This document shows, piece after piece, positions 1-25,178 of a stretch of 32,000 nt of DNA. The translations under genes and the position numbers were made by a program. The DNA is from Promethearchaeota archaeon (GTDB lineage: Archaea; Asgardarchaeota; Lokiarchaeia; Sigyniarchaeales; Promethearchaeaceae): the NCBI GenBank assembly GCA_016933055.1, contig JAFGBS010000014.1, positions 1-32,000 on the forward strand, written 5' to 3'. Under the pieces are notes generated by a model. The model was not told where the DNA came from and ran no database searches. It saw nothing but the letters and a program-made list of their open reading frames with translations. Each line of letters opens with the position of its first letter. Within the stretch, counting starts at the first letter, position 1.

Positions 1-857
1 GAGGCTTCGAGAAATCAACTTCTTAGTATAGGCTGGAAAAAAGAAGCGGATAAGCTTTTATCAGCTATTAATATGTATGAAAATTTCTATCAAAAGGATG
101 TTCTAGATAGAAAGAAGCTCCAGCTAATAGAAAAAATGGATGAACAGGAGAAAAAACGATTGCAAGAAACTATTCGTCTGCAAAAAGAAGAAGACGAACT
201 AAAGGAAATGGAACGGCTAAAAAAATTAACAGAAATAGAAAAAAAGAAAGCTTTAGAGGAGGAAATCAGCAAACAAGTATTTAAACAGATAGAAGAAATT
301 GAAAAGGAAGTAAAAGAATATAATGAACACCCTATAAATGAGAAAATCACTAGTGCAAGCCCCTATTTGCGTGCAAAAAATATATATCAGTCCGCTCGAG
401 ATGAGTTACTGAAGATTGGGTGGAAAATTGAAGCAGACAAATTGCTAACACCCATTTCAATGTATGAAAATCTCCATCATAAAGATCAAATGGAACGAGA
501 AAAACTTCATTTGATAAAGAAAAAGCAGATGGAAGAACAAAAAAAACTAGAAGAATCAATACGATCACAAACAGAAGAAGTAGAACGAAGAGAACAGGAA
601 AAACGACAGAAGTTAGAAGAGATAAGCAAAAAGAAAGAACAAGAAGACCAAATAAGCAAAGTCACATTCCAAGCGATTGAAGATATTGAAAAAGAAGTTA
701 AATTCTATAAGGAACACGCACTTGCAGAGCATTACGCTTTGGACTGTCCGTATTTGAGAGCTAAGAATGTATATGAGGCTTCGAGAAATCAACTTCTTAG
801 TATAGGCTGGAAAAAAGAAGCGGATAAGCTTTTATCAGCTATTAATATGTATGAAAA
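1..857 (+). repeat. Exact 83-nt intragenic direct repeat (copies at 1-83 and 775-857, offset 774 nt = 2 x 129 codons)
   Basis: The sequence from gaggcttcgagaaatcaac to attaatatgtatgaaaa is identical at both loci and diverges abruptly afterwards. Confidence 0.95.
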
Positions 858-3800
858 ATTGCTCTATACAGATGAAATAGAGCGAGGAAAATTCCTTGAA
901 AAACAAGAAAAAGAGAAAGAAGAGAAAAGAAAATTATACGAGTCTATTCAAATACAAAAAGAAGAACGAGAACGACAAGAACGAGAACGAATACGCGCAC
1001 TTAGGGAGCAAGAATTACAAAAACAACACGAAACAGACGTAAGTGAGAAAGCGTTTCAATTAATTGAAGATATTGAGAAAGACGTTACACATTATAGAGA
1101 GCGAGTGAAGATAGAAAACTATCATCTACCCTGCCCTTATGATCGAGCTATAGAAGTCTATAAAACTGCTCAGAAGATGCTCATGGAAATAGGCTGGAAA
1201 AAGGAAGCGGATAAACTCACCAATAGTATACGCGTATATGATAGATTATCTAATGAAGATTTGGAAATTCGGAACAAATTCAAAGCGAAATTAGAAAAAG
1301 AAAAAGAAGCAGAAAGAGAACTGCAGGAAACCATTCAAAGAGAAAAGGAACGTCTTTTATTGGAAGAAGAAAAAAGAAAAAGCGAATTGGAAAAATTTGA
1401 TAAGAAAAAAAGGGAAACCGAACAACTGCAGCAATCTGCATATGAAAAATTAGAAGCAGGAAACCGTTATATTCAAGAAAAAGAGTTTGACAAAGCTTCT
1501 GAAGAACTACAAGAAGCACTTAAACTCTTCAAGAAGATCAAATGGAAATCCGGTATTAAATTAACCGAAAATGCAATAAAATATAAGGAAAATGAACAAG
1601 AGAAATTTGAGCGTTTACTCCAGCACGAACGTCTCGCTTTGCAAGAAAAAGTGAAGAAAGAGCAAGAATTCCAAGAATTCTTAGAGGAACAAAGAAGAAT
1701 TAAAGATCAAGAAGAGCAGAATAGGAAATTGGAATTATTACGCATTGAAATGGCAAGTAAAAAAGTAAGTGAACAACAAGAAAGTGCATTCAATAAATTA
1801 GAAGAGGGAAATGATCTTGTTAAAATCCGTGAATTTGATAAAGCAAATAAACTCTACTTAGAAGCATTGAGCATTTTCCAAGATATTGGTTGGGTAGATG
1901 GTGTAGAGAAAACTAAACAATCTATTTCTCATAATCTAATTGAACAAGAACGCTATAAGCAACATCTGGAATTTCAGAAAAAGCAAGAACAAGAAAGACA
2001 AAAAGAAGAGCAAGAGTTAAACGAATTAATAAGAAAGAGGCAGGAATTAACACAATTGGAAGAACAAAAAAAGCGATTACAAATCGAACAGCAACATGAA
2101 CAAGCTGAGAAAATTAAACAAAGACAACAAGAAGCGCTTGAATTACTAGAACAAGGTAATGAAAAAACCACCCAAAATCTATTTGATGAAGCGGAAAAGG
2201 ACTTCAATCATGCGATGACAATATTCCAAGAAATAAAATGGAGTCATGGGATTAAGATCACCGAAGAAGTACTGAAACACAATGCTGAAGAAAGAAGTAG
2301 ATTCTTACAATTACAAAAGAGAGATGAAAAAGCACGCCTTGAGCAAATTAAGCAACAAAAAGAATTGGAACAGATGTTAGCTAAACAAAAATTAACGGCT
2401 CAACAGGAGGCACGACTAAAAGAGTTACAACAAGCTCAAGAAACGGAGAAAAAATTCCAAATTCAATCTATGCAAGAAGAAGCTATGCTATATTTAGAAA
2501 AAGGTAACGAAGCGATACAAATTAAGAAGTTCAATCAGGCTAATGCGCTTTTTGCTTCTGCTATGAAGATCTTCCAAGAAATGGGATGGCAAAAAGGAAT
2601 TGAAATGACGAATAGTGCCTTAGATTACAACCAAAAAGAATTGTTAAAATTCGAAAATGAAAGACTGCGAGAAGAGCAAAAGAAGCAAGAAGCTTTAAGA
2701 AGGCAAGAAGAAATTAACCAACTTATCAAGGAATCAAAAGCAGAAGAAATACAGAAGCAACTTGAATGGAAAAAGAAGTTGGAAGAGAAAACACAGCGTA
2801 TTGACGAAGAAAATAGCATAAAAGATCAAATTTTTGCACTACTTGAGAGAGGAAGTAAGCTTGCTGCGAAAAATGAATTTCTCTCTGCAATTGAGTTATA
2901 TAAAAAGACTATACCCCTATTTGAGAAAATCTCTTGGCCACTAAAACGGGATCAAGTAATTGATCTTATTGACTCTACTCAACAGGATTATGATAACTAT
3001 CGCAAGCATTTGGCAAAAGAGGAAGCAATACGGAAAAAACAGGCTGAAGAAGAAGAACAAATGAGATTGCTGATCCAAAGTGAACAAGAGAAGGAAAAAG
3101 CACGCCAGAAACTTATCCAACAGCAGCAATTTGAGCAGCAAGAACGTGATAAACGGAATGAAGAATTACGAAAAGAAGCGGCAGAAGAAATCAATAAGGC
3201 AAGCGTGATGCTAGAACGGCGAAAATTTGAAAACGCTATAGAAAGCTTGAATATTGCTCTTTCAAATTTCAAAAAACTCGGTTGGGATAAAGAGGCAAAA
3301 GTTACCGAAGAAAGAATTGCTGAAGTGAACAAGCAAAGACGAGAAACCTACAAACCCATTGATCGTGAAGAATCAGCGAGTGATATGGAAATTTCTGAAC
3401 AAGGGTATGGCCAAATAGAAGAGGCAGATAAATTCATACGACAAAAAAAATATCGAAAAGCACTTCCCTACTTAGAGGAGGCTGCACGATTGTTTGAAAA
3501 AATTCAGTGGACCAAAGCTATTAAGATGGTTGAACGTCGAATTCGTGAAACGGAAAAATTAATCACAGAAAAAGAGGAACTAATTGAAAAATTACGTTCT
3601 CGTCGCTCTCGAAAAACAGAAAAAGAAGCATACCAGCTTTTGGAAAAAGTAGATAAATTTCGACGAGAAAATCATTATGATTATGCATTAACTTCTGCAA
3701 AAGAAGCTCAAAGAATATTCCAGGATTTGAAATGGGAAAAAGAAGCAGCTGAATTAGATAAATTGATTCATACTATTGAAAAGGAGAATGAGGAACAGAA

Positions 3801-3939
3801 AGTAGTACGGACCCAGGAACAAAGCGAAAGAATGGAAAAAATTAAGGTAGAGGAAGAAGAAGAAAGAAAGATTCAAGAAATAATCGAGGAGAGACGAAGA
3901 AGGAGGAGAGAGACCCGCCAGAAACTCAAGGATGAATAA
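1..3939 (+). CDS. Giant (>1312 aa, 5'-truncated by the window) E/K/Q/R-rich tandem-repeat protein: TPR-like helical hairpins separated by charged helical or coiled-coil linkers
   Basis: Frame +1 is open from base 1 (EASRNQLLSIGWKKEADKLLSAINMYEN), so the ATG at 73 is internal. Twelve Trp-anchored units (W codons at 34, 421, 808, 1195, 1543, 1891, 2239, 2587, 2935, 3283, 3508, 3733). Stop TAA at 3937-3939. Confidence 0.85.
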   Translation, partial: EASRNQLLSIGWKKEADKLLSAINMYENFYQKDVLDRKKLQLIEKMDEQEKKRLQETIRLQKEEDELKEMERLKKLTEIEKKKALEEEISKQVFKQIEEIEKEVKEYNEHPINEKITSASPYLRAKNIYQSARDELLKIGWKIEADKLLTPISMYENLHHKDQMEREKLHLIKKKQMEEQKKLEESIRSQTEEVERREQEKRQKLEEISKKKEQEDQISKVTFQAIEDIEKEVKFYKEHALAEHYALDCPYLRAKNVYEASRNQLLSIGWKKEADKLLSAINMYEKLLYTDEIERGKFLEKQEKEKEEKRKLYESIQIQKEERERQERERIRALREQELQKQHETDVSEKAFQLIEDIEKDVTHYRERVKIENYHLPCPYDRAIEVYKTAQKMLMEIGWKKEADKLTNSIRVYDRLSNEDLEIRNKFKAKLEKEKEAERELQETIQREKERLLLEEEKRKSELEKFDKKKRETEQLQQSAYEKLEAGNRYIQEKEFDKASEELQEALKLFKKIKWKSGIKLTENAIKYKENEQEKFERLLQHERLALQEKVKKEQEFQEFLEEQRRIKDQEEQNRKLELLRIEMASKKVSEQQESAFNKLEEGNDLVKIREFDKANKLYLEALSIFQDIGWVDGVEKTKQSISHNLIEQERYKQHLEFQKKQEQERQKEEQELNELIRKRQELTQLEEQKKRLQIEQQHEQAEKIKQRQQEALELLEQGNEKTTQNLFDEAEKDFNHAMTIFQEIKWSHGIKITEEVLKHNAEERSRFLQLQKRDEKARLEQIKQQKELEQMLAKQKLTAQQEARLKELQQAQETEKKFQIQSMQEEAMLYLEKGNEAIQIKKFNQANALFASAMKIFQEMGWQKGIEMTNSALDYNQKELLKFENERLREEQKKQEALRRQEEINQLIKESKAEEIQKQLEWKKKLEEKTQRIDEENSIKDQIFALLERGSKLAAKNEFLSAIELYKKTIPLFEKISWPLKRDQVIDLIDSTQQDYDNYRKHLAKEEAIRKKQAEEEEQMRLLIQSEQEKEKARQKLIQQQQFEQQERDKRNEELRKEAAEEINKASVMLERRKFENAIESLNIALSNFKKLGWDKEAKVTEERIAEVNKQRRETYKPIDREESASDMEISEQGYGQIEEADKFIRQKKYRKALPYLEEAARLFEKIQWTKAIKMVERRIRETEKLITEKEELIEKLRSRRSRKTEKEAYQLLEKVDKFRRENHYDYALTSAKEAQRIFQDLKWEKEAAELDKLIHTIEKENEEQKVVRTQEQSERMEKIKVEEEEERKIQEIIEERRRRRRETRQKLKDE

Positions 3940-4107
3940 TTAATTGTCCTTATTGCCTTTCTCTATTGGGATTACTAATTCATTTCGTATAAGATCTCGA
4001 ATAGCAACCCTTATAGCTTCAGATCTGCTGGGAAAGTGTCCATCATCAACTAATGATTCTAACGCCGTTAAATATCGTTCTGGTATATGAACAGTGATCA
4101 TTTTCAT
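3940..4107 (-). CDS. CopG/Arc/MetJ ribbon-helix-helix transcriptional regulator (55 aa), CdrS-like
   Basis: Not in the ORF track. Manual translation gives MKMITVHIPERYLTALESLVDDGHFPSRSEAIRVAIRDLIRNELVIPIEKGNKDN: alternating beta-strand ITVHI plus the FPSRSEAIR helix-2 motif. SD-like GAGGA lies upstream on the minus strand. Confidence 0.85.
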   Translation of the reverse strand: MKMITVHIPERYLTALESLVDDGHFPSRSEAIRVAIRDLIRNELVIPIEKGNKDN

Positions 4108-4296: not shown

Positions 4297-4617
4297 ATGA
4301 AAGAACAACTTCAAAAACACCTTAAAGATGGTGAACCGTGGGAAAAAATGATTACGGATATTCCAGGGGTTTTTATTGTCCGAGTTCCTGGACCAAAAAC
4401 TAATCCCAAAAATGCACGATTAATGCTTGAGATCAATCCTGTGGATGAGGATGGAAAACCCAAAAAAAGAAAAGGATTATTTTTATCTGATCGAGAAACC
4501 TACATTCAGTATTTTGAATTACTTAGTGATGACCGAATCAATAAAATTCTACTGACTTTAGAAGAAGTAAATCCGAAAAATCAGTCCAAATCGATGAAGA
4601 AACTAAAAATTGAATAA
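4297..4617 (+). CDS. Hypothetical protein, 106 aa
   Basis: Clean ORF with globular-looking composition (PGVFIVRVP, LEINP, KKRKGLF). No family recognised with certainty. Confidence 0.7.
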   Translation: MKEQLQKHLKDGEPWEKMITDIPGVFIVRVPGPKTNPKNARLMLEINPVDEDGKPKKRKGLFLSDRETYIQYFELLSDDRINKILLTLEEVNPKNQSKSMKKLKIE

Positions 4618-4734: not shown

Positions 4735-5088
4735 ATGCCAGCTCCAACAGGTCCAAGTAATAGCATTACAAGAAAACTCATCCGATCTTTATGGAAAACC
4801 AACACAGGAATTTGGAGAAGAATCTCTGAGATATTATCAAAGTCTTCTCGTGATCGACCAGAGATAAATTTGTACCGTTTGAACAAATTAACAAAAACCG
4901 ACGATATAGTAGTGGTACCTGGAAAAGTACTGGGTGCTGGTACTCTAGATCACCCCATTACAATTGGATCACTTATGATTTCTCAACTCGCATTAAAGAA
5001 GTTGACCGAGTCCAAAGGAAAATTCATGACAATCGAAGAAATGATGAAGAAATACAAAAAAGGGAGTAACATAAAAATACTGATTTAG
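4735..5088 (+). CDS. rpl18e: 50S ribosomal protein eL18 (L18e)
   Basis: IWRRISEILSKSSR...INLYRLNK, VVVPGKVLGAG motifs; SD AGGTGG at 4725-4730. Confidence 0.95.
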   Translation: MPAPTGPSNSITRKLIRSLWKTNTGIWRRISEILSKSSRDRPEINLYRLNKLTKTDDIVVVPGKVLGAGTLDHPITIGSLMISQLALKKLTESKGKFMTIEEMMKKYKKGSNIKILI

Positions 5089-5098
5089 GTGACGATCT

Positions 5099-5560
5099 TT
5101 GACTAAATGGAAGAAATTGGATGCAACTGGCTTGATATTAGGAAGGTTATGTAGTATAATCGCAAAACGTGCTTTAATGGGTGAGAAAATAGTAATCACG
5201 AATGCAAAATTCGCCGAAATTTCTGGAAATCGAGGTCAAATTATTGAACGCTATCAGCATTATAAATCGATAAAAACTGCTTCTAATCCGAAAAAAGGAC
5301 CATTTCGCGTAGGTATCCGACCGGACATATTCGTTCGAAAAACTATTAGGGGAATGTTACCAAAAAATGATCGCGGTAAACAAGCATTAGGAAATATCCA
5401 TGTATATATTACCGGAATTCCCGAAGATAAAAATCAATATGGTGAATGCGAAGATTTTACTCTTGGAAAAAAATATCAAGCATTTAATCTTGGAAGGAAA
5501 TCAGTTTCCGTGGAAGATCTATGTAAAGTAATTGGTTGGAATCAAGGAGGGTTATCATAA
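5099..5560 (+). CDS. rpl13: 50S ribosomal protein uL13 (TTG start)
   Basis: LDATGLILGRLCSIIAK, RPDIFVRKTIRGMLPK; SD AGGTGA at 5087-5092 supports the TTG start at 5099. Confidence 0.95.
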   Translation: MTKWKKLDATGLILGRLCSIIAKRALMGEKIVITNAKFAEISGNRGQIIERYQHYKSIKTASNPKKGPFRVGIRPDIFVRKTIRGMLPKNDRGKQALGNIHVYITGIPEDKNQYGECEDFTLGKKYQAFNLGRKSVSVEDLCKVIGWNQGGLS

Positions 5561-5961
5561 TGAAAGTAGTTCAAGAAACGGGGAAGCGAAAGAGAGCTGT
5601 TGCTCGGGCTACATTAAAGCCTGGAACGGGATTAGTCAGAATAAATAGTGTTCCAATAGAACGATATCAACCTGAAATCGCCCAAATGAAGTTAAAAGAG
5701 GTATTCCTTATAATTAAAGATCCCAAATTAAAAGATGTGGATATAAATGTGAGAGTATACGGTGGCGGTGTTATAGGAAGAGCAGATGCGGCTCGAATGG
5801 CGATTACACGAATTATAAACAAATATTTGGGTAAAAAAAGAGTTACAAAAGCCATTAGAGAATATGATAAGTCCATGCTTTCGGGTGACAAACGTAGAAT
5901 AGAACCCAAAAAGTGGGGTGGACCCAAAGCTCGGGCAAGAGTACAGAAATCCTACCGATAA
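5560..5961 (+). CDS. rps9: 30S ribosomal protein uS9
   Basis: TGKRKRAVARA, VYGGGVIGRADAARMAI, RRIEPKKWGGPKARARVQKSYR. The true start is probably the ATG at 5560 overlapping the rpl13 stop (TAATG), with SD GGAGG at 5546-5550, rather than 5536. Confidence 0.96.
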   Translation: MKVVQETGKRKRAVARATLKPGTGLVRINSVPIERYQPEIAQMKLKEVFLIIKDPKLKDVDINVRVYGGGVIGRADAARMAITRIINKYLGKKRVTKAIREYDKSMLSGDKRRIEPKKWGGPKARARVQKSYR

Positions 5962-5986: not shown

Positions 5987-7624
5987 TTATTTTAATATTC
6001 CTTCTTCAATTAAATCCAATACACGAGACAATACATCCGATTCTGATATATAACCATCCCAAGTTTTAGATAGTTGAACAAGAATTTGATCAATAGTCAT
6101 CATAGATTCTTTTCGTACGGTTTCGACTATTAAACTCTCCAGTGTAGTCAACAATGCCTTTTTCTGATTGTAAACTACATCAGATAATGTGAATATACGA
6201 TCATAAGGGATATTCTCCGGAAAAGGATTGAAATATTGATAGAATAATTTATCTATGTGTGGTTTTATTCCCATAAGATCGATAACTCGTTGTTCGAACA
6301 CATCCTTGAATTCATTTTCAATTACTTGGATGAATTCTTTGGTTTTTTGAAGGTAAATTTTTTCAGGATGCTTTTTGAACCGTAGTATTGTCTTGACACC
6401 TGAGTTACCAGTTCCAATAATCGCATGCAAATTCCCAAAATCTAAATAATCCACTTCTTGTATTTTCTTAAATCGTAAAAATCGATCACGTACTATTTCC
6501 ATAGTTTGCATTAAACCAGAGAAAATCGTTATTTCATTTGAATCGCTTTTTGTACGGGTATATAAATGCCTTCCTATATGAAGAATAATGAGATCTTGTA
6601 AATTATCATAAGTTATATATTCAGAATTAGGATTGTGATATGAAATACTTTCAATTTGATTATTTCGTTTCAATATTGCTAATATTTTCTTACTTTCAAC
6701 GATAGAATTGCCTAATGCTAAAAGATTAACCAGATTGGGTTCAAAATTCATTTGAAGGCATTTCTTTATTTGCTCATTGGATTCTTGAGTTAAAATATCT
6801 AATTCTTCCTTGGGGAGATCATCCAGATTAATACTTTGTTCCCAAAATTCCATTAAGGTTTTCGATTCAGAATTATTTAATCCCCAAATCAACTCCAACG
6901 AACGTCTTGTAATAGTGAATTTATTTAAATGTTCAAATTCAGTGAGGTAATATATTCCTAGTTCAATCGAATAATGTTCCTCTTTCATGTCGTTAAGATG
7001 ATGGTGTAATTTTGACAACATTCTATCGATTGTTAAAGGACTATATTCCTTAGGAACCCATTTTTTTGAGCATTCTAAAAGCTCCGGTAACCTCCGAAAA
7101 AAAATACTTTCATTTTCCGTCTCATTTATATCAAAATAAAAGGTGTTAATCCCAAACACTTTGTTAAAGAGTTTTTTTAGATGTAGGTTGTAAAAGAATT
7201 TACTAAGTTCCCTGCGAGGAGTATCACCATTATAATTCATCCCGATTAGAAGTAATGGTATATATGACCTTCGGATTTGGCTGATTTTCGAAAAAAATTC
7301 CTTGCATTCATCAGAAAGAGTGATATTTGTATTATCACACACCATAATGATAGCATCTGCTTCTCGAAATTCCTTTTTGGGAGTTATTATCGTAGAAAGA
7401 AGCAATGGTTGTATCAAATAAATTCGTAATTTATATTTGCACTGTCCAAGCAACTTCTTACGAGTAAATTTCTCATTGGGAAATTCGAAATATACTAAGG
7501 CAGTTTTCCCAGGTGTAGATTGGAATCCTAAATAGTTTCGAAACTTCGATACAGCTTCTTGATCCCCACACAGCAAGATATTATAGGAGTCCATTTTACT
7601 CATAGTACTTTCTAAATATCTCAT
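5987..7624 (-). CDS. Multidomain protein: degenerate small-GTPase-like N-terminal domain, longin-like domain and probable C-terminal winged helix
   Basis: N-terminal pattern NILLCGD...FREADAIIMVCD...IPLLLIG follows the Rab/Roc fold with G1, G3 and G4 motifs lost. Residues ~342-450 (LIILHIGRHLY...IFSGLMQTM...IQEVDYLDFGN...FIQVIENEF) fit a longin-like pattern. Ends with LDLIEEGILK. The start may be 7603 or 7594. Confidence 0.6.
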   Translation of the reverse strand: MRYLESTMSKMDSYNILLCGDQEAVSKFRNYLGFQSTPGKTALVYFEFPNEKFTRKKLLGQCKYKLRIYLIQPLLLSTIITPKKEFREADAIIMVCDNTNITLSDECKEFFSKISQIRRSYIPLLLIGMNYNGDTPRRELSKFFYNLHLKKLFNKVFGINTFYFDINETENESIFFRRLPELLECSKKWVPKEYSPLTIDRMLSKLHHHLNDMKEEHYSIELGIYYLTEFEHLNKFTITRRSLELIWGLNNSESKTLMEFWEQSINLDDLPKEELDILTQESNEQIKKCLQMNFEPNLVNLLALGNSIVESKKILAILKRNNQIESISYHNPNSEYITYDNLQDLIILHIGRHLYTRTKSDSNEITIFSGLMQTMEIVRDRFLRFKKIQEVDYLDFGNLHAIIGTGNSGVKTILRFKKHPEKIYLQKTKEFIQVIENEFKDVFEQRVIDLMGIKPHIDKLFYQYFNPFPENIPYDRIFTLSDVVYNQKKALLTTLESLIVETVRKESMMTIDQILVQLSKTWDGYISESDVLSRVLDLIEEGILK

Positions 7625-10170: not shown

Positions 10171-10926
10171 TTATCTTCCTATTCTTCGATTTCGTTTTAA
10201 ATAGGCTTTCAAATCTTCTAAGAGCATATCTTTATTGTAATCGGGCCATAAATCAGAACGGAATTTGAATTCTGCATAACTAGAGTCCCACAATAAAAAA
10301 CCTGACAACCTAGCCCCATCTTCCATTCCCGTCCGAATAATATAATCCAATTCAGGAAAATCATAGGTATACAAGTTTTGTTTGATTGTAGACCGATTTA
10401 TCTCTTCCATGGGAATCTTGGATCGAATAATTTTTTTAACAGCGTCTACAATTTCATCTTGTCCATCATAAAGTACACAAAAATTAATAAAATTATCATG
10501 GTATTTCTCGGTTGCTCGATTCATCTTTTCAATTTTTTCTTGAATTTCCTTGGGTAAATTATGTAATCTGCCAATTAGTCGCACGCGTACTCTTTTCTCT
10601 CGTATTAAAGGTTCAGAAAGCACGTCTTCTACTCCTTTGATTATGAGTTTAAATAGATATTTTACTTCCTTTTCGGTTCTATATTTGACATTTTCATTTG
10701 ATAAAGCATATACACTTAAATAAGGAATTCCTGCCTGGAAAATTGGATAAAGGATGGATTTCAACGTCTGGTATCCCGCTATATGTCCTTTTGTAACATC
10801 TTTGCTCCCTTTACGTGTGATCCACCGTCTATTTCCATCTAAAATTAAACCAAGATGAACCGGAAGCTTATCTTTATAATTAATATGTAACTCCTCCAGT
10901 GTAGAGATGTTATCTAAGTCGCTCAT
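10171..10926 (-). CDS. uppS: cis-prenyltransferase (polyprenyl/undecaprenyl diphosphate synthase family)
   Basis: PVHLGLILDGNRRW, YALSNEN, LDYIIRT...RLSGFLLWDSSYAE, LWPDY...RNRRIGR. Likely start is the ATG at 10926 (MSDLDN); the ORF track start of 10965 is upstream. Confidence 0.95.
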   Translation of the reverse strand: MSDLDNISTLEELHINYKDKLPVHLGLILDGNRRWITRKGSKDVTKGHIAGYQTLKSILYPIFQAGIPYLSVYALSNENVKYRTEKEVKYLFKLIIKGVEDVLSEPLIREKRVRVRLIGRLHNLPKEIQEKIEKMNRATEKYHDNFINFCVLYDGQDEIVDAVKKIIRSKIPMEEINRSTIKQNLYTYDFPELDYIIRTGMEDGARLSGFLLWDSSYAEFKFRSDLWPDYNKDMLLEDLKAYLKRNRRIGR

Positions 10927-11006
10927 TTTTTTATTCCGCGGATTTTTTGTAATAAAAGAACTCAATTAATTTTTTATGAGGGGAAGTATTAATTGTTAAT
11001 CGTATT

Positions 11007-12593
11007 ATGCAAGACTTGCTAAACGTGGGAATCGATTCCATTGGATTTTATGCACCACGGTTCTATATCGAATTGGAGGAATTAGCAAAAGCACGCAAAG
11101 TATCCCCAAATAAATATAAAGAGGGATTACTCCTTAAAGAACTTCGATTTACGGATATAGGTGAGGACATAATATCTCTCGGATTCCATGCAGCAAGAAT
11201 TGCACTTCAAAGAGGAAATATTAACTCCCAAGAAATTGATGGTGTGTTTGTCGGAACAGAAACGGAAACTTATGCAGCGAAATCAATTTCCAATATATTT
11301 ACTGAACTATTGGATATTCCTCCTAATTGTTTAACCCAAGATATTATGAATACATGCGCATCAGGTACCTTAGCTATATTAGATGCAATCTCTCTCGTGG
11401 AATTAAGAATTGTAACTAAAGCCTTAGTCATAATTACGGATATATCGAATTATGAAAAACATAGTGCGGGAGAGCCAACACAAGGAGCTGGTGCGGTTGC
11501 ACTAGTTATTTCAAAGAATCCCCGGATTGCTTCCTTTTCCCGATCTTTCGGGAAAGTGTCTGGAAATGTGGATGATTTCTTTCGCCCAAAAGGTAATAAA
11601 AATGCTCAAGTATTTGGAAAATATTCTGTTCAATCCTATTTAAACCTCCAAATGAAAGCTTATGAGAATCTTGAAAATCAAATTGGTGACATCAATGCAG
11701 ATTACTTCATTTTTCATGGTCCTTATGCACGATTACCCTTAAAATTGATGTATAAACTAATTTCTAAAAATTGGCTTTATCGCATTGAAAAAAAGATAAG
11801 TAAATATACACCCTTTCCAAATTCGGATATATTAGATCGTATATTCAGCAATGTATCAATAGTACCTGATTTTATTGTGAACAAATTAGCGGAGATTACT
11901 GCAAATTCTGAGGAATTTGAATCAATTAAGATGCGACTGCGGGATGTGATCAAAAACACAGTTTTACCTCAACTACATATTCCTATGTATTTTGGTAATA
12001 TGTATTCAGCCTCATTATGGGCTCAGTTGCAATATTTGCTCGAAACGGCATTAAAACCAAATGATTATGTATATTTCGGATCCTATGGTTCTGGGGCAAC
12101 CTGTATATCGGGATTAATTAAAATAAATGAGAGATATTCTGAAGTAATTAGGAATCCCCCCACAGTTCGGGATATTATGACTAATAAAGTGAAGAAATCC
12201 ATTCCTGAATATGAAGAGATTAAATACAATCAACTTAAACCAGAATTAGTATGGGCGAAAATACAATCACTAGAGGATCATCCAGGCTATACTCTTCGGT
12301 ATTGCGATAAAGGTTGCTTGTTATCACCAATTCAAGGCATAGAATATTGTCCAAAAGGACATAGTGGAATCAATACATTATATTTTCCCATTTATGCAAC
12401 TTTAATAACTATTATAAAGCCTTTTGATCAAAATGATTTAAGTCCATTGAAGGATGGTCTTGTTCTACTGATTGGAAAACCCCATATAGGTTCTACCTTA
12501 GAATTTGAATTAAGACGTACCCAATCAAATGAAGAAGGTAGTGAAGCAAAAGGATTATTGAATTGGATACCGATTTATAATGCAAATATTTAG
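11007..12593 (+). CDS. mvaS: HMG-CoA synthase (MvaS-like) with a fused C-terminal DUF35-like Zn-ribbon/OB-fold domain
   Basis: VGIDSIGFYAP, catalytic triad E85 (GTETE), C117 (NTCASG), H237 (FHGPY); GEPTQGAGAVA, GNMYSASL, FGSYGSGA. About 120 extra C-terminal residues with C433-x3-C-x10-C-x3-H and IGSTLEFELRR...GLLNW. Confidence 0.9.
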   Translation: MQDLLNVGIDSIGFYAPRFYIELEELAKARKVSPNKYKEGLLLKELRFTDIGEDIISLGFHAARIALQRGNINSQEIDGVFVGTETETYAAKSISNIFTELLDIPPNCLTQDIMNTCASGTLAILDAISLVELRIVTKALVIITDISNYEKHSAGEPTQGAGAVALVISKNPRIASFSRSFGKVSGNVDDFFRPKGNKNAQVFGKYSVQSYLNLQMKAYENLENQIGDINADYFIFHGPYARLPLKLMYKLISKNWLYRIEKKISKYTPFPNSDILDRIFSNVSIVPDFIVNKLAEITANSEEFESIKMRLRDVIKNTVLPQLHIPMYFGNMYSASLWAQLQYLLETALKPNDYVYFGSYGSGATCISGLIKINERYSEVIRNPPTVRDIMTNKVKKSIPEYEEIKYNQLKPELVWAKIQSLEDHPGYTLRYCDKGCLLSPIQGIEYCPKGHSGINTLYFPIYATLITIIKPFDQNDLSPLKDGLVLLIGKPHIGSTLEFELRRTQSNEEGSEAKGLLNWIPIYNANI

Positions 12594-13779
12594 GCACTCT
12601 CCGATTTTTAATCAATTGAAGCAAGATTATCAAGATATAATACACTATTTGGAAGAAAATCACTATCACATAGAACCTGTCCCAACATATCAAACGGCTA
12701 ATTATGATTTCGGAGAAGAATGCGCTATTGCATTCCCAATTCAAGGTCTATTAAAATATCATGGAATGTTAGATTCCTATGAGAGAATTGCGCTGTTCCC
12801 CAGTATATCCCTTAATAATGATGCGTTCTATACCGTTACTTACCTCAAATTTGATCCTGATTTGATCGAGGACATATTTTATTTAAACGGTAAAGTACAA
12901 TCCCACAACAATGAATATGAACGAGTAAAATTCCAATTAAACAAGATTCGGAACCATGCTGGAGTTCAAAGTAAAGCATTTATTATATCAAGGAATTTTA
13001 CTAGAACTGATTCTGCACAATTATCAGGAAAAGGATTGGGAACATCAGCGGCTGGAGGTGCCGCAATAGCCCGAGCTGCGTTTTCGATTCTATATAAGGA
13101 TAAAATATATGCAAACAATTCTCGGTTACAAAGTGTTTTTTCTCGATATCTATCTGGTTCAGCTGCAAGAAGCAGCGTAGGTGGTTTTGCATTATGGATG
13201 AGTAAACCTGATAGAGAAACATGGAATAGTTATGCAATACGTTTAGATACTCCTGAATATGAGGATTTTATTAATACAATCTCACTTATTTCCATCCCTT
13301 TTAGTTCCTCCTTTAGTACTTCTTTAGCTCATAGACTTGCTCCAAGTTCTCCTTTTTACCAAAAATGGTGTTTATCACGTAAAGAAAAGATATTCAAATT
13401 TCTTCAAGCGTTTCAAGATCGGGATTTTAAGATTATAGGAGAATTAGCTGAAGAGGATTCCAGAATTTTACATCAAATTAGTAATACAGCAGATTTTGGA
13501 CTTACGTATTGGAACGATAAAACAAGAGAATTAATGAATTACGCTGATCAGATGAAAAAAAAAGGTATCCCTGTTTATTATACAATAGATACTGGCCCCT
13601 CCGTAGTATTTCTCACTCAAAAAAAATATGAAGATCAAATAATTCAAGACTTACATCTCCAATTTAAATTATCTTCAAAAATATTTAGGGGATCTGTAGC
13701 CGGACCAAGCAAATTAATTCCACCAAATTCTAATTTAATTCACCTATTGGATGATGACTTTGAAAAATTCAGCTCCTAG
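12580..13779 (+). CDS. mvaD: GHMP-family mevalonate decarboxylase, haloarchaeal/Chloroflexi-type phosphomevalonate decarboxylase
   Basis: AFPIQGLLKYHG (haloarchaeal PMD has AHPIQGLVKYHG), GLGTSAAGGAA, SGSAARS, PVYYTIDTGPSV. Overlaps the mvaS stop by 14 nt. Confidence 0.85.
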   Translation: MQIFRHSPIFNQLKQDYQDIIHYLEENHYHIEPVPTYQTANYDFGEECAIAFPIQGLLKYHGMLDSYERIALFPSISLNNDAFYTVTYLKFDPDLIEDIFYLNGKVQSHNNEYERVKFQLNKIRNHAGVQSKAFIISRNFTRTDSAQLSGKGLGTSAAGGAAIARAAFSILYKDKIYANNSRLQSVFSRYLSGSAARSSVGGFALWMSKPDRETWNSYAIRLDTPEYEDFINTISLISIPFSSSFSTSLAHRLAPSSPFYQKWCLSRKEKIFKFLQAFQDRDFKIIGELAEEDSRILHQISNTADFGLTYWNDKTRELMNYADQMKKKGIPVYYTIDTGPSVVFLTQKKYEDQIIQDLHLQFKLSSKIFRGSVAGPSKLIPPNSNLIHLLDDDFEKFSS

Positions 13780-14926
13780 TTCGCGACTACCTGGTTTTCA
13801 TAATCTTTCCATCAAGGAACGACAAGAAATTATAAAGAAATTATCAGGTTTAACTAATGAAGAAATAGATCAATTAAATAACTTCGGAAATCTGGGAATG
13901 GAGTTAGGAATTAAATTTTCAGAAAATGTTATTGGAGGATACACCTTACCAATTTCAATTGCTACTAATTTTCAAATTAATTCGAAGGATTACCTTGTTC
14001 CCATGGTCACGGAGGAATCCTCTGTTGTTGCAGCAGCATCTTATGGTGCTAAATTAGCTCGAAAATATGGAGGTTTTGTTTGTGATCCTTTAGAAAATCT
14101 AATGATCGGTCAACTGCAGATTTTACTGGAAAAACGAGATGACATCGAAAATTTTATCCGACCATTAAAATCAGAATTCCTAAGGAAAATCAACGAACAA
14201 CACTCTACTTTATCATCAGTGGGAGGGGGTGCGAAAGAACTAAGATTTAGAAAAATACAATCTAGCCGGGGTGGAATGGGTATTCTTGAATTGGAAGTTG
14301 ATGTGGTGGATGCAATGGGAGCAAATATTGTTAATTCTATGATGGAAACCCTTGGAAAACTACTACAAAGGAAATATCATGAAAAAATCCGTGCAAAAAT
14401 AGTTTCTAATCTCGCCATAGGTCGAATATGCAAATGTAAAGCAATTTTTGATACAGAAGAAATGGGAAGAGATGTAGCACATAAATTAGTAGATATCTAC
14501 GCATTTGCTGAAGCAGATCCATACCGTGCTGTGACCCACAATAAAGGTATAATGAATGGAATTATTGCATTAGCATTAGCAACAGGGAATGATACACGTG
14601 CTTTAGAAGCAGCTGCTCATGGATATGCTTCAATTGATGGAAAATATAGACCTTTAAGTCGATTTTATTTAAATGAAGAAGGAAATTTAGTTGGATCTAT
14701 ATCAGTTCCCTTACCTATGGGTATTATAGGTGGAATCACATCTATGAATCCCGTATCTAGAATTGCCTTAAAAATTTTGGGCATTTCCACCGCTACAGAA
14801 TTAATACAAATCGCAAGTGCGGTGGGTTTGGCTCAGAATATTTCCGCCCTTAGGGCACTTGCCGACGAAGGCATCCAAAAATCTCACATGCGATTGCATG
14901 CACGAAAATTTGAAAATAGAAGATGA
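13751..14926 (+). CDS. mvaA: HMG-CoA reductase, class II
   Basis: SRLPGFHNLS, ENVIG, PMVTEESSVVAAAS, DAMGAN, THNKGIMNG, GNDTRALEA, GIQKSHMRLHAR. Confidence 0.95.
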   Translation: MMTLKNSAPSSRLPGFHNLSIKERQEIIKKLSGLTNEEIDQLNNFGNLGMELGIKFSENVIGGYTLPISIATNFQINSKDYLVPMVTEESSVVAAASYGAKLARKYGGFVCDPLENLMIGQLQILLEKRDDIENFIRPLKSEFLRKINEQHSTLSSVGGGAKELRFRKIQSSRGGMGILELEVDVVDAMGANIVNSMMETLGKLLQRKYHEKIRAKIVSNLAIGRICKCKAIFDTEEMGRDVAHKLVDIYAFAEADPYRAVTHNKGIMNGIIALALATGNDTRALEAAAHGYASIDGKYRPLSRFYLNEEGNLVGSISVPLPMGIIGGITSMNPVSRIALKILGISTATELIQIASAVGLAQNISALRALADEGIQKSHMRLHARKFENRR

Positions 14927-14930
14927 GACG

Positions 14931-15875
14931 ATGATTATTGCATCAGCACCCGGAAAATGTATATTACTTGGAGAACATGCAGTGGTGTACGGATATCCAG
15001 CCGTTGCAGTTGCGTTAAACATTCGATCTTATTGCTCAATTCATAGAATCTCTGAAAAATACATTCATTTTAATTTACCAGACCAATCTTTTGACATAAT
15101 ATGTGAAAATTTAGAACAATTACTAAAATCAATCCCTCAAAAATACCTACAATTTCCTCAAGTACTAGTTAGTCTATCTAAGCGATTTAATTTCAAAGTT
15201 TCTAACATATCAATCCAAATTCAATCAAATTTATGGAGAGGAGCGGGATTAGGCTCATCAGCATCAACATCAATAGCTTTCTTATTTGCCATCTTTCATC
15301 TATACAGAGTGGATAAAAAATTCATACCTGAATTTGCATTCATGATGGAGAAATATGTCCATGGAACACCATCTGGAATTGATAATAGTGTTTGTTATTG
15401 GGGGGGTACCTTAGTTTTTCAAGAGAAAATAAGAGAGAAATTCACGATTCCTAAATTTCCTATGTTGATCACGCATTCAGGAACTACTCATAATACCGGA
15501 AATATTGTTAGAGAAATAAAAAATAGCTCTTCTTCTATGAAAAAATCATTCTCGGAAATTGGACAGATAGTTCAAGAAGGATTAAACGTGCTAAAACTGG
15601 CAGACCTTGTGCGTTTAGGTGAACTGTTTAATAAAAATCATGATATTTTGTCAACAATGGGAGTTTCAACAGAAGATATCGAAATTATTCGAACAATAGC
15701 CTTAACAAACGGTGCTTATGGCTCCAAAGTCACAGGAGCGGGAGGGGGAGGATGTGTGATTTCATTAGGGGAGTTGAATAATTTAAAAAAAATCAAATCC
15801 ATCCTTCATCTCAGAGGATATATCAGCAAAATATCTTACGTGGATTATAATGGTGGTAGAATTGAATCAGAATAG
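14931..15875 (+). CDS. mvk: Mevalonate kinase
   Basis: ASAPGKCILLGEHAVVYG, GAGLGSSAS, HGTPSGID, SKVTGAGGGG. The start is placed at ATG 14931, 4 nt after the mvaA stop; the ORF-track start at 14817 lies inside mvaA. Confidence 0.95.
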   Translation: MIIASAPGKCILLGEHAVVYGYPAVAVALNIRSYCSIHRISEKYIHFNLPDQSFDIICENLEQLLKSIPQKYLQFPQVLVSLSKRFNFKVSNISIQIQSNLWRGAGLGSSASTSIAFLFAIFHLYRVDKKFIPEFAFMMEKYVHGTPSGIDNSVCYWGGTLVFQEKIREKFTIPKFPMLITHSGTTHNTGNIVREIKNSSSSMKKSFSEIGQIVQEGLNVLKLADLVRLGELFNKNHDILSTMGVSTEDIEIIRTIALTNGAYGSKVTGAGGGGCVISLGELNNLKKIKSILHLRGYISKISYVDYNGGRIESE

Positions 15876-16839: not shown

Positions 16840-17973
16840 ATGTTTGATTTTGAAGAAGAAGAAGAATATCGGGATGAAACGGATACAGGAGATGAAGCAG
16901 AGCAATACGATGCATTTCGAGAGGAAGACATCGCCGCCGAAAAAGAAATTGTAGCAGAGGGAAAAGATTACACCTTAATTGAAGTTGATTTGTGGGCAAC
17001 CTCCCTCCATGATGCAAAAATAGGTATTCGTCAAGATGCACAGTACCAATCAAAATCTCGACAGTTCACAAAAACATCAGAAGTTATTGGAAATGTTGTG
17101 TTTCACACTGGATGGGATGAAAATCGTCAAAAAGAGAATTATGAGGAAGTTATAACTATAGATCAAGAGTTTTGGGATATTGGAAAAAAATCCAAAATTA
17201 TGCAAATAGTCCAAGATCGGTATTCTGATTATGATCCCAAAAAATTTGCCCGTATGATGCGAAAATTAGTTATTAAGACTTTTGTAGATTTGGGTCGTAA
17301 ACAAGAAGAACGGATGCGAGGAAGATGGACTGGTAGTTTTGAAGAATCCCAAGTAATGTCGTTAGTTATGACATTCGGAGATCGAAGAAGGCGTAATCCC
17401 CTACCGTTCTTTTATGTAGATATTCCAGGTTTTAAATATCGAGTGCCAGTGACACGGGTTCACACAATAATTGGAGATCGATATGTATTTCCAATGATTG
17501 ATGATGAAACCAACTCAGTAGTACCTTATTTAATAGAAGAAAGACGATTTACTTTCGGTCAAGACTATCAGCTATTTGATGGAAGGACAATGAAAAAAAT
17601 TGCCGTAATTAATGATGTTGCGATAAATATTGGAGGCAAAGTTAATATCAAATTCAAAAAGCCAAAGATTGATAAAAATGGGGAATTAATTGATCCTTGG
17701 GAACATTTAAGGAGAAATTATGTATTTCAACGTATAATTATTTTGTTTGCTGCAAGTTTAAACTATTTTCATTCAATTTATCGGCAATACCGACGAGTCC
17801 ATCGTGCAATGAAGACTTTACGGAGTTATCAGAAAGACAAGGGAAAGCTTTCTCTTATGGAACAAGAAGAAAAGTACCGACAAGCCAAAAAGAAGATGAG
17901 AATCCTGAAGTGGTACCCTGTATGGGCAAAAGAGTTATCACTTCATTATAATCCACGCAGAGTTAGAACATAA
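16840..17973 (+). CDS. Hypothetical protein with an acidic N-terminus, a possible LURP-one/Tubby-C-like beta-rich domain and a basic C-terminus
   Basis: 377-aa ORF; N-terminal EEEEEYRDETD. The segment EERRFTFGQDYQLFD...KKIAVINDVAINIGGKVNIKF...RIIILFAASL resembles the LURP-one pattern by eye. Confidence 0.6.
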   Translation: MFDFEEEEEYRDETDTGDEAEQYDAFREEDIAAEKEIVAEGKDYTLIEVDLWATSLHDAKIGIRQDAQYQSKSRQFTKTSEVIGNVVFHTGWDENRQKENYEEVITIDQEFWDIGKKSKIMQIVQDRYSDYDPKKFARMMRKLVIKTFVDLGRKQEERMRGRWTGSFEESQVMSLVMTFGDRRRRNPLPFFYVDIPGFKYRVPVTRVHTIIGDRYVFPMIDDETNSVVPYLIEERRFTFGQDYQLFDGRTMKKIAVINDVAINIGGKVNIKFKKPKIDKNGELIDPWEHLRRNYVFQRIIILFAASLNYFHSIYRQYRRVHRAMKTLRSYQKDKGKLSLMEQEEKYRQAKKKMRILKWYPVWAKELSLHYNPRRVRT

Positions 17974-22082: not shown

Positions 22083-25000
22083 ATGGCTTTATCCGGAATT
22101 TCTCGTGTAATTGACAAAATTAAATTTGGGCTGCTTTCACCAGACGAAATTCGTAAAATGTCTGCAACCCGCATTATTACTGCAGATACTTATGATGATG
22201 ATGGTCTACCACTAGCTTCAGGATTGATGGACCAAAAACTTGGGACTATTGAACCCGGACAGAAATGTACCACTTGTGGTAACCGCGTTGGACAATGTCT
22301 CGGTCATTTCGGGCATATCGAATTGGCACGACCCGTAGTGCATGTTGGTTTTGCAAAGCTTCTGCTTAAATTGTTGCGAAGCATTTGTCCGGAATGTTCT
22401 CGGTTATTACTCTCCGAAGATCAATTTGAGGATTTTAAAAAGCGAAAAGAGCAACAAGTAAGGGTTTTCGAAAATGTAAGTGATGTACTCATTCAAAATA
22501 TATTTAAAACCGCCCGGAAAACCAAACAATGCCCCTATTGTGGAGCAGAACGTAAAAAAATTACGATTGAAAAACCCACAACCTATTATGAAGAAGTAGG
22601 ATTAGATCAACCAAGACGTTTGTATCCCGATGATATCCGAGAAAGACTCGAAAAAATGAATGATGCGGATTGTCGATTATTAGAAATTAATCCAGAAGCC
22701 ACACGACCTGAATGGATGATTTTAACAGTATTACCTATTCCACCCGTCTGTGTACGCCCTTCTATTACCCTTGATAGTGGAATTCGATCAGAAGATGACT
22801 TAACTCACAAATTAGTAGATGTAATTCGAATCAATGCTCGATTACGGGAAAACATAGAAGCAGGCGCACCTCAACTTATCGTTGAGGATTTATGGGAGTT
22901 ATTGCAATATCATATTACGACCTTTTTCAATAACGAGGTAAGTGGAATCCCCCCCGCACGGCATCGTTCTGGACGAGCATTACGCACATTAACACAACGA
23001 TTAAAGGGAAAAGAGGGACGTTTCCGAAGTAATCTCAGTGGAAAACGTGTAGATTTTTCAGCACGTACAGTAATATCACCAAATCCTCATATTTCCATAA
23101 ACGAAGTTGGAGTACCCGAAATTATAGCAAAAATTCTTACTGTGCCAAACCATGTTACTGAATGGAATATCGAGGACATGAAACAACTTATTATTAATGG
23201 TCCAGATAAACATCCTGGAGCAAATTACATCATTCGAACCGATAGTCGCAGAATTGATTTACGATATGTGAAAGATAGGAGTATTATCGCTGACACCGTT
23301 GAACCGGGATATATTGTTGAGCGGCATCTTAAAAATAAGGATCTTGTATTATTTAATCGACAACCTTCTCTACATCGAATGTCTATCATGGCACATGAAG
23401 TACGAATAATGACGGGGAAAACCTTCCAGCTTGCATTGCTTGTTTGTACACCTTATAATGCAGATTTTGACGGGGATGAAATGAATCTTCACGTCCCTCA
23501 AAGTGAGGAAGCAAGAGCAGAAGCTCAATTTCTGCTTAAAGTTCAAGAACATATTTTATCTCCACGATATGGGGGACCCATCATTGGTGGAGTTCATGAT
23601 TTTATTTCGCTCGCTTATATTTTTACGCGTAAATCGTCATTATTCGATAAAAATACTACGTATCAATTATTAGAATGGGGAAATGTTTTTCAACGCAATC
23701 CTGAATTCAAATTATCAGATTTGAAACCCGAAACCACCGATCCAGAACCTTTATACTCGGGAAAAGCGATTTTTAGTACAATTTTACCCAAAGATTTGAA
23801 TATGCAATTAAAATCCAACTTTTGTCAAAAATGCAAAGATGGATGCAAAGAAGAAGACTGTGAATTCGATGCGTATGTAAATATTGTTAATGGAGAACTA
23901 ATTTCGGGAGTTTTAGATGAAAAAACTTATGGAGCGGGAAAACCTACAACCATTTTACTTCGAATCACTAAAGACTATGGACCAGATGCAGCGAGAAAGT
24001 TTTTGGATGATTCAGCTAGTATGCTGTTGTACTTTATTATGCATCATGCATTGACGATGGGATTAGATGAAGTTGATATTACTTCAATTATGCCAAAGAT
24101 TAACGAAGTGATGGCTAAAGCTAACCAACAATGTGATACTTACATAAAGGCATTTTATGAAAACGATGAAGAAACAATGCCTTGCGCACCAGGACGTACT
24201 TACAAAGAAACTTTAGAACTGCGTATACGCGAGGTATTGAATAAAGCACGTGATGAGGCCGGAAAGATCGGAGCAATTCAATTAGGGGATTCAGCTCACT
24301 CAGTCATAATGACCAAAAGCGGAGCTCGAGGGAATCCACTCAATCTAACCCAAATGGCTGCATGTGTAGGACAACAAGCCGTCCGAGGAGATCGAATTCA
24401 TCGAGGATTTTCAGATCGGACTCTACCTCATTTTAAAGTCCATGATCTTACTGCAAGAGCTCGTGGTTTTGTCGAATCCTCTTATCGCAAAGGTTTGGAT
24501 CCTATAGAATTTTTCTTCCATGCTATGGGGGGGCGAGAAGGTCTTGTAGACACCGCTGTGCGAACTTCTTCATCTGGTTATATGCAGAGACGATTGGTTA
24601 ATGCTTTACAAGATATGGTTGTACAAAATGATGGGACAGTAAGAACTTCTACCGATAACATAATCCAATTTGTCTATGGTGATGATCGCGTAGATCCAGC
24701 CAAATCCGACCATGGAGAAGCTGTAAACGTTAAAAATATTTTTCTGAAAGCGAAAAACATGTATGAATATTTTCATTACGAAAAGGAAGTACAAGAAAGA
24801 AAATTTCAACGATTAGAAGAAGAGGGAAAGCTCACTAAAGAAATCAAAAAACAACAGGATTTAATTGAAAATTATGAACCAGTATTTGATGCCGAAGTAA
24901 AATTTCCTAAAAAAACCGAACCTAAGAGCAGTAAAAAGAAAACAGAGAAAAAGAAAACTGTTTCTAAAAAAGCCTCTGAAAAAGCCAAAAAGATGACATC

Positions 25001-25178
25001 TACAAAAAAAGAATCAGAAAGATTAGAGAAAGAAGAAACAGAATCCAAATATACCGATGAATATTTTCATAAATTATACAATGAAGAAACAGGAAAAACC
25101 GCAATTTGGCGTGGTTCTCTCACTCAGATATTTCTCAAATGGCTTGAGAAGAAAAAGGAAGAATTAGGGGTGAAATAA
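22083..25178 (+). CDS. rpoA1: DNA-directed RNA polymerase subunit A' (Rpo1N) with a ~140-aa C-terminal extension
   Basis: CPGHFGH-like [37 protein letters not shown], catalytic [34 protein letters not shown]. Confidence 0.98.

Follow-up and report, generated by a model that had tools for sequence, protein, structure and literature searches.

What becomes of a small-GTPase domain that has lost the motifs for binding nucleotide, and why would an archaeon keep it? The question is raised by a gene for a 545-residue protein on contig JAFGBS010000014.1 (assembly GCA_016933055.1) of a Promethearchaeota archaeon of the Lokiarchaeia, of which positions 1 to 32,000 were analyzed (the window). The initial annotation described the product as a pseudo-GTPase domain fused to longin-like and winged-helix (wH) domains, and the motif strings it quoted are exact in the sequence. 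Its architecture is backed by structure and profile tests, in which the predicted folds found their matches, while its suggestion that the wH unit is DNA-binding or ESCRT-II-like was not supported. The folds, the family-wide motif loss, the purifying selection and the sharing of the longin-wH module were established computationally; beyond them, we give a probability of about 0.5 to the reading that the protein is a soluble, single-copy class-i pseudoGTPase acting as a constitutive adaptor in the Asgard longin/GTPase network.

A small-GTPase fold without nucleotide motifs

No other long open reading frame (ORF) overlaps the gene, which terminates 25 bp away from the stop codon of the convergent S9 gene; Met8 (position 7603) is an alternative start, at which several homologues begin. 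The protein matched no Pfam family at E values up to 1. About 30 relatives with 19-74% identity were found, the complete ones nearly all 540-590 residues long, and a 50%-identity library contained 26 relatives; the named homologues belong to Promethearchaeota/Lokiarchaeota, and the window holds ribosomal and RNA polymerase genes of archaeal type. The family profile was built from an alignment of 25 homologues, and conservation percentages were taken from 16 diverse homologues.

The N-terminal domain possesses a six-stranded G-domain fold, and its best Foldseek matches were Gtr/Rag proteins and LokiRagO. Its nearest sequences are Asgard GTPases matched by Pfam Gtr1_RagA and Arf, and no family member itself matched Gtr1_RagA. 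The G1 pattern GxxxxGK[ST] occurred in none of the 25 homologues, and the G3 (DxxG) and G4 ([NHT]KxD) motifs were absent at the aligned positions in all of them. An orthologue with an intact P-loop, for which the initial annotation had advised looking, was found neither among these 25 nor among further relatives. In the model structure, residue 22 is already the first of helix 1, only two positions past G20, which indicates that the glycine-rich loop has been absorbed into the helix. Because the pocket columns after the first glycine are variable (12-45% conservation), no new conserved motif has taken the place of the lost ones; Gln72 is retained in half of the diverse homologues. A relocated P-loop at residues 33-41 was rejected, as only this sequence carries it. 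Judged from the sequences, the protein very probably binds no nucleotide.

Conservation is found elsewhere in the domain, namely at the end of beta2 (Y45, F46, F48, P49, and N50, with F46 at 94% and P49 at 100%) and in switch II (L76, P82, and F86), and the Y-F-E-F-P-N motif is a candidate protein-binding face. Against two relatives, the proportions of nonsynonymous (pN) and synonymous (pS) differences were 0.17-0.19 and 0.70-0.87, respectively, and the ratio of the corresponding substitution rates (dN/dS) was about 0.11 where unsaturated, resembling that of the neighboring DUF255 gene. Thus, the domain is under purifying selection and is not decaying. A G fold with degenerate G motifs, conserved in orthologues (dN/dS about 0.1), is one mark of a class-i pseudoGTPase and was found here; the other mark, no measurable nucleotide binding or hydrolysis, is predicted.

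Asgard Rag/Arf-like GTPase-longin/roadblock fusions similarly carry a GTPase-fold domain and a longin in one chain (PMC10933270; bioRxiv 2020.10.19.343400; LokiRagO, PDB 8yl2), but they keep G1, G3 and G4, whereas this family has none. Unlike Rag/Gtr proteins, in which a G domain with intact motifs directly precedes the roadblock or longin domain, the protein has a 145-residue helix-turn-helix (HTH) region between the G domain and the longin, followed by the wH unit. The domain arrangement also differs from that of LokiRagO, with a root-mean-square deviation of 17.5 in the model upon alignment of both domains.

Among active proteins, those most closely related to the dead domain are widespread Lokiarchaeial GTPases of 415-435 residues (loci L019-L037, e.g. 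L028:973-2223), which start with an unannotated helical domain of 130 residues and finish in a coiled C-terminal tail. An active Rag-like GTPase of about 526 residues is encoded in the same genome (G000:C2:213604-215181; L057:4605-6182) and seems by eye to continue past its G domain with a wH and a longin/roadblock region; of 61 Lokiarchaeia genomes, 25 contain relatives, which often form tandem arrays. Origin from this G-wH-longin family was not supported, since the G domain alone matched, and weakly (HHalign 15%), with the middle region, longin and wH unmatched.

The HTH region and the shared longin-wH module

In the first, probable HTH of the middle region (about residues 220-262), E231, G248 and W261 are invariant and T239-R240 is 88% conserved. 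Foldseek searches with the middle region gave nothing significant, and an internal repeat among its two HTH units and the terminal wH was discarded because no profile match was obtained. The longin is the best conserved domain, above all in helix 1 (F368-R379), and follows the beta-beta-alpha-beta-beta-beta-alpha-alpha order of the longin fold without an N-terminal roadblock helix. The terminal unit has the order H-S-H-H-S (H, helix; S, strand) in the model and weak matches to wH families in Pfam, and the chain stops before a full wing. Its net charge is -5 (family median, -2.5; median of the third helix, -2), and the basic recognition helix or wing of a DNA-binding wH was not found.

The C-terminal 220 residues are homologous throughout (HHalign 99.5%) to the cytoplasmic longin-wH tails that large single-pass surface proteins of Lokiarchaeia carry, and to NPRL2-like longin proteins, although our protein has the module in soluble form, attached to a pseudo-GTPase. 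Searches of PDB sequences with the longin, middle and wH profiles returned weak or unrelated matches only. Homodimer prediction for residues 190-545 scored 0.24 against a mark of 0.42, which counts neither way.

Adaptor, regulator or ribosomal factor

We propose that a Rag/Arf-like Asgard GTPase domain was fused to a short HTH region and a mobile longin-wH module, which serves as a membrane-tethered tail in other Lokiarchaeial proteins, and that the domain, once fused, lost every nucleotide-binding motif. The pseudo-GTPase would then keep a single conformation and use its conserved beta2/switch-II face as an unchanging surface for binding proteins. Through its central helix, the longin may pair with a second longin or with a roadblock domain, either of a surface-protein tail or of a Rag-like GTPase, and the acidic wH may provide a protein-protein contact. 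Such a protein would link or stabilize parts of the longin/GTPase network instead of switching.

The class-i pseudoGTPases AAGAB/Irc6p (PMC12490416), p190RhoGAP pG1/pG2 (PMC5593906), and CENP-M likewise combine a small-GTPase fold without G motifs with a presumed role as a protein-binding module. However, these are biochemically tested proteins of eukaryotes whose partner is a separate chain, while the present protein comes from an archaeon, carries its own longin in the same chain and is known from sequence and model. AAGAB grips AP sigma subunits, which have a longin fold, via its beta2-beta3 and beta6-alpha5 loops (PMC12490416), and the beta2-beta3 loop is the site of the best-conserved motif of our family. 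No Pfam family of these pseudoGTPases was detected among the 25 members, nor did AAGAB/Irc6p appear among the fold matches listed, which does not exclude orthology. Because no sequence relationship was detected, the resemblance is an analogy and likely convergent. A bolder reading of low probability extends this analogy: the archaeal pseudoGTPase might grip a longin as AAGAB grips AP sigma, and so serve as a constitutive adaptor, or as an assembly chaperone, that joins the longin tails of surface proteins to the small-GTPase network of Asgard archaea.

Distribution and neighborhood weigh against the adaptor reading. A profile search of 400 Asgard genomes found full-length orthologues in seven, one copy each, all in two families of one order; most of the Lokiarchaeia covered by the search, among them a genome assembled as one contig, gave none. 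The family is thus old within its order yet patchy, and the protein is no core part of the longin/GTPase network. Nor is any longin, roadblock, GTPase or ESCRT gene a consistent neighbor in the readable loci. The same phylum-wide search found no Thorarchaeial orthologue; the top ESM Atlas feature match was a 563-residue unannotated cluster, mostly of Thorarchaeota (score 0.90). A related-locus search of the genome contigs found nothing.

Among the alternatives, the protein could directly regulate an active Asgard small GTPase in the manner of the guanine nucleotide exchange factors (GEFs) TRAPP or Mon1-Ccz1, with the longin as catalytic platform and the dead domain as recruiter or built-in placeholder. 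The longin fold is closest to TRAPP sybindin (TM score 0.73), Pfam Sybindin matched weakly in 2 of 17 members, and the genome contains about 44 ORFs with the canonical G1-G3-G4 pattern. Dimers of longin and roadblock domains are also mainly GEFs (PMC10933270). We nevertheless consider a GEF-like role unlikely, as no GTPase neighbor is conserved. A GTPase-activating protein (GAP) is disfavored as well. The arginine finger of GAP-type longins lies in the beta4-beta5 loop, where this family has no conserved Arg, and the GP motif before beta2, another feature of GAP-type longins such as NPRL2, FLCN and SMCR8 (PMC12290439), is missing from the beta1-beta2 loop of all 25 homologues.

Linkage to ribosomal protein genes, which the initial annotation had correctly pointed out, raises the possibility of a ribosome-associated or nucleic-acid-binding factor, either an assembly factor or a transcription regulator, working through the middle HTH units. 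Tsr1, a eukaryotic pseudo-GTPase, acts in 40S assembly. The 3' end of the gene abuts the L18e-L13-S9 trio in 15 of 18 readable loci, which are kin and not independent samples; 10 of these are convergent on S9 and 5 are co-oriented about 80-160 bp upstream of L18e. Two further loci lie 6.6 kb from S9 and one elsewhere, so that 17 of 18 are within 7 kb. The conserved T239-R240 of the first HTH would also suit such a factor, but neither the HTH units nor the wH carry a basic charge, being neutral or acidic. In the convergent loci the gene is not co-transcribed with the trio, and orientation tracks the family tree, on which the three arrangements need two changes in total. Moreover, non-ribosomal genes (serine hydroxymethyltransferase, EPSP synthase, a tRNA methyltransferase and an unknown family) have stayed in the block in three families even though strands flip, and close relatives without the gene have an empty slot in an intact block, where accordingly no active version is hidden. 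Inherited synteny therefore accounts for the linkage without co-regulation, and the strict adjacency leaves a ribosomal role as a minor and rather improbable rival. A sigma-70 promoter/terminator scan, which is unsuited to archaea, gave chance-level results.

Binding of a nucleotide or another small ligand at a non-canonical site, as in a class-ii pseudoGTPase or ligand sensor, is improbable. The fold is intact under selection, G20 persists, Q72 remains in half of the family, and a chance-like GKT occurs at residues 39-41; however, conservation within the domain is lowest at the pocket positions, the GKT sits in switch I and is unique to this sequence, and a helix fills the P-loop in the model. 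Finally, an ESCRT-II-like or ESCRT-linked adaptor working through the wH units is very improbable; its signal consists of one Pfam match in 1 of 17 members and a structural tie among many wH domains.

Surrounding genes and significance

Features of the pseudo-GTPase gene and its convergent neighbors (positions in the window; aa, amino acids)
Feature	Position	Strand	Remarks
Pseudo-GTPase/HTH/longin/wH gene	5987..7624	-	545 aa
Pseudo-GTPase domain	7055..7597	-	aa 10-190; small-GTPase fold, Rag/Arf-like by sequence profile
Degenerate G1	7544..7567	-	aa 20-27; first Gly alone mostly kept
Y-F-E-F-P-N motif, end of beta2	7475..7492	-	aa 45-50; most conserved motif of the dead domain
G3 position	7406..7420	-	aa 69-73; Asp and Gly lost
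G4 position	7229..7243	-	aa 128-132; variable columns, [NHT]KxD in no homologue
Helical middle region	6635..7039	-	aa 196-330; linker helix, probable HTH (about 220-262) and HTH/wH-like unit (about 272-330)
Longin domain	6221..6625	-	aa 334-468
C-terminal wH-like three-helix unit	5990..6151	-	aa 492-545; acidic; wing incomplete; belongs to the shared longin-wH module
Ribosomal protein genes L18e, L13, S9	4735..5961	+	convergent neighbors; context, outside the gene

Several genes near the pseudo-GTPase gene or its slot deserve mention. About 500 bp upstream of the sole orthologue outside the ribosomal block lies a gene for a 255-residue protein with a weak longin-profile match (L054:8092-8856, minus strand), a possible partner. 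A conserved three-gene run (L041:1999-4137, plus strand; also in L044, L046 and L056) ends in an atypical 204-residue GTPase gene a few genes from the slot. In the window, a gene at 16840-17973 (plus strand) encodes a 377-residue protein that matches no Pfam family and has an acidic N-terminus; it is conserved in the vicinity of the ribosomal trio in 8 of 19 loci, and in at least two it is the divergent neighbor of the pseudo-GTPase gene.

Upstream of the trio, a 1288-residue charged helical-repeat ORF resembling tetratricopeptide repeats (73-3939, plus strand) is probably cut by the contig start; in several relatives, related giants of 1300-1900 residues occupy the same place beside a small ribbon-helix-helix gene, and a 55-residue ORF (3940-4107, minus strand) stands where relatives carry this RHH_1 gene. 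A conserved 106-residue protein without a Pfam family (4297-4617, plus strand) is encoded immediately upstream of L18e, and the gene for RNA polymerase subunit D, the normal predecessor of L18e, is not there. An isoprenoid cluster (10171-15875) comprises genes for a prenyltransferase, 3-hydroxy-3-methylglutaryl-CoA (HMG-CoA) synthase, a mevalonate decarboxylase/3-kinase-like protein, HMG-CoA reductase and a GHMP kinase; the 528-residue HMG-CoA synthase extends about 150 residues past its Pfam match. RNA polymerase subunit A' (22083-25178, plus strand; 1031 residues) has about 160 extra C-terminal residues, its Pfam matches stopping at residue 869.

Asgard GTPase-longin fusions and narrow, shuffled domain architectures are already known (PMC10933270; bioRxiv 2020.10.19.343400). 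PseudoGTPases are known in eukaryotes, and an Asgard member is apparently undescribed; a full-text literature search found no paper on an Asgard pseudoGTPase under that term. The patchy distribution limits the significance of the finding, as does the fact that lineage-specific domain shuffles generally abound in Asgard genomes. Asgard GTPase counts and regulator models presuppose working switches, while here a G domain is retained under selection across two Lokiarchaeial families despite the loss of all nucleotide motifs, a loss that makes the family invisible to Pfam and motif-based surveys. The soluble, well-predicted protein is a test case for nucleotide-independent archaeal pseudoGTPase scaffolds and for the binding partners of longin-wH modules. 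If it does grip a longin as AAGAB does, pseudoGTPase-longin scaffolding would already have been present in the prokaryotic relatives of eukaryotes.
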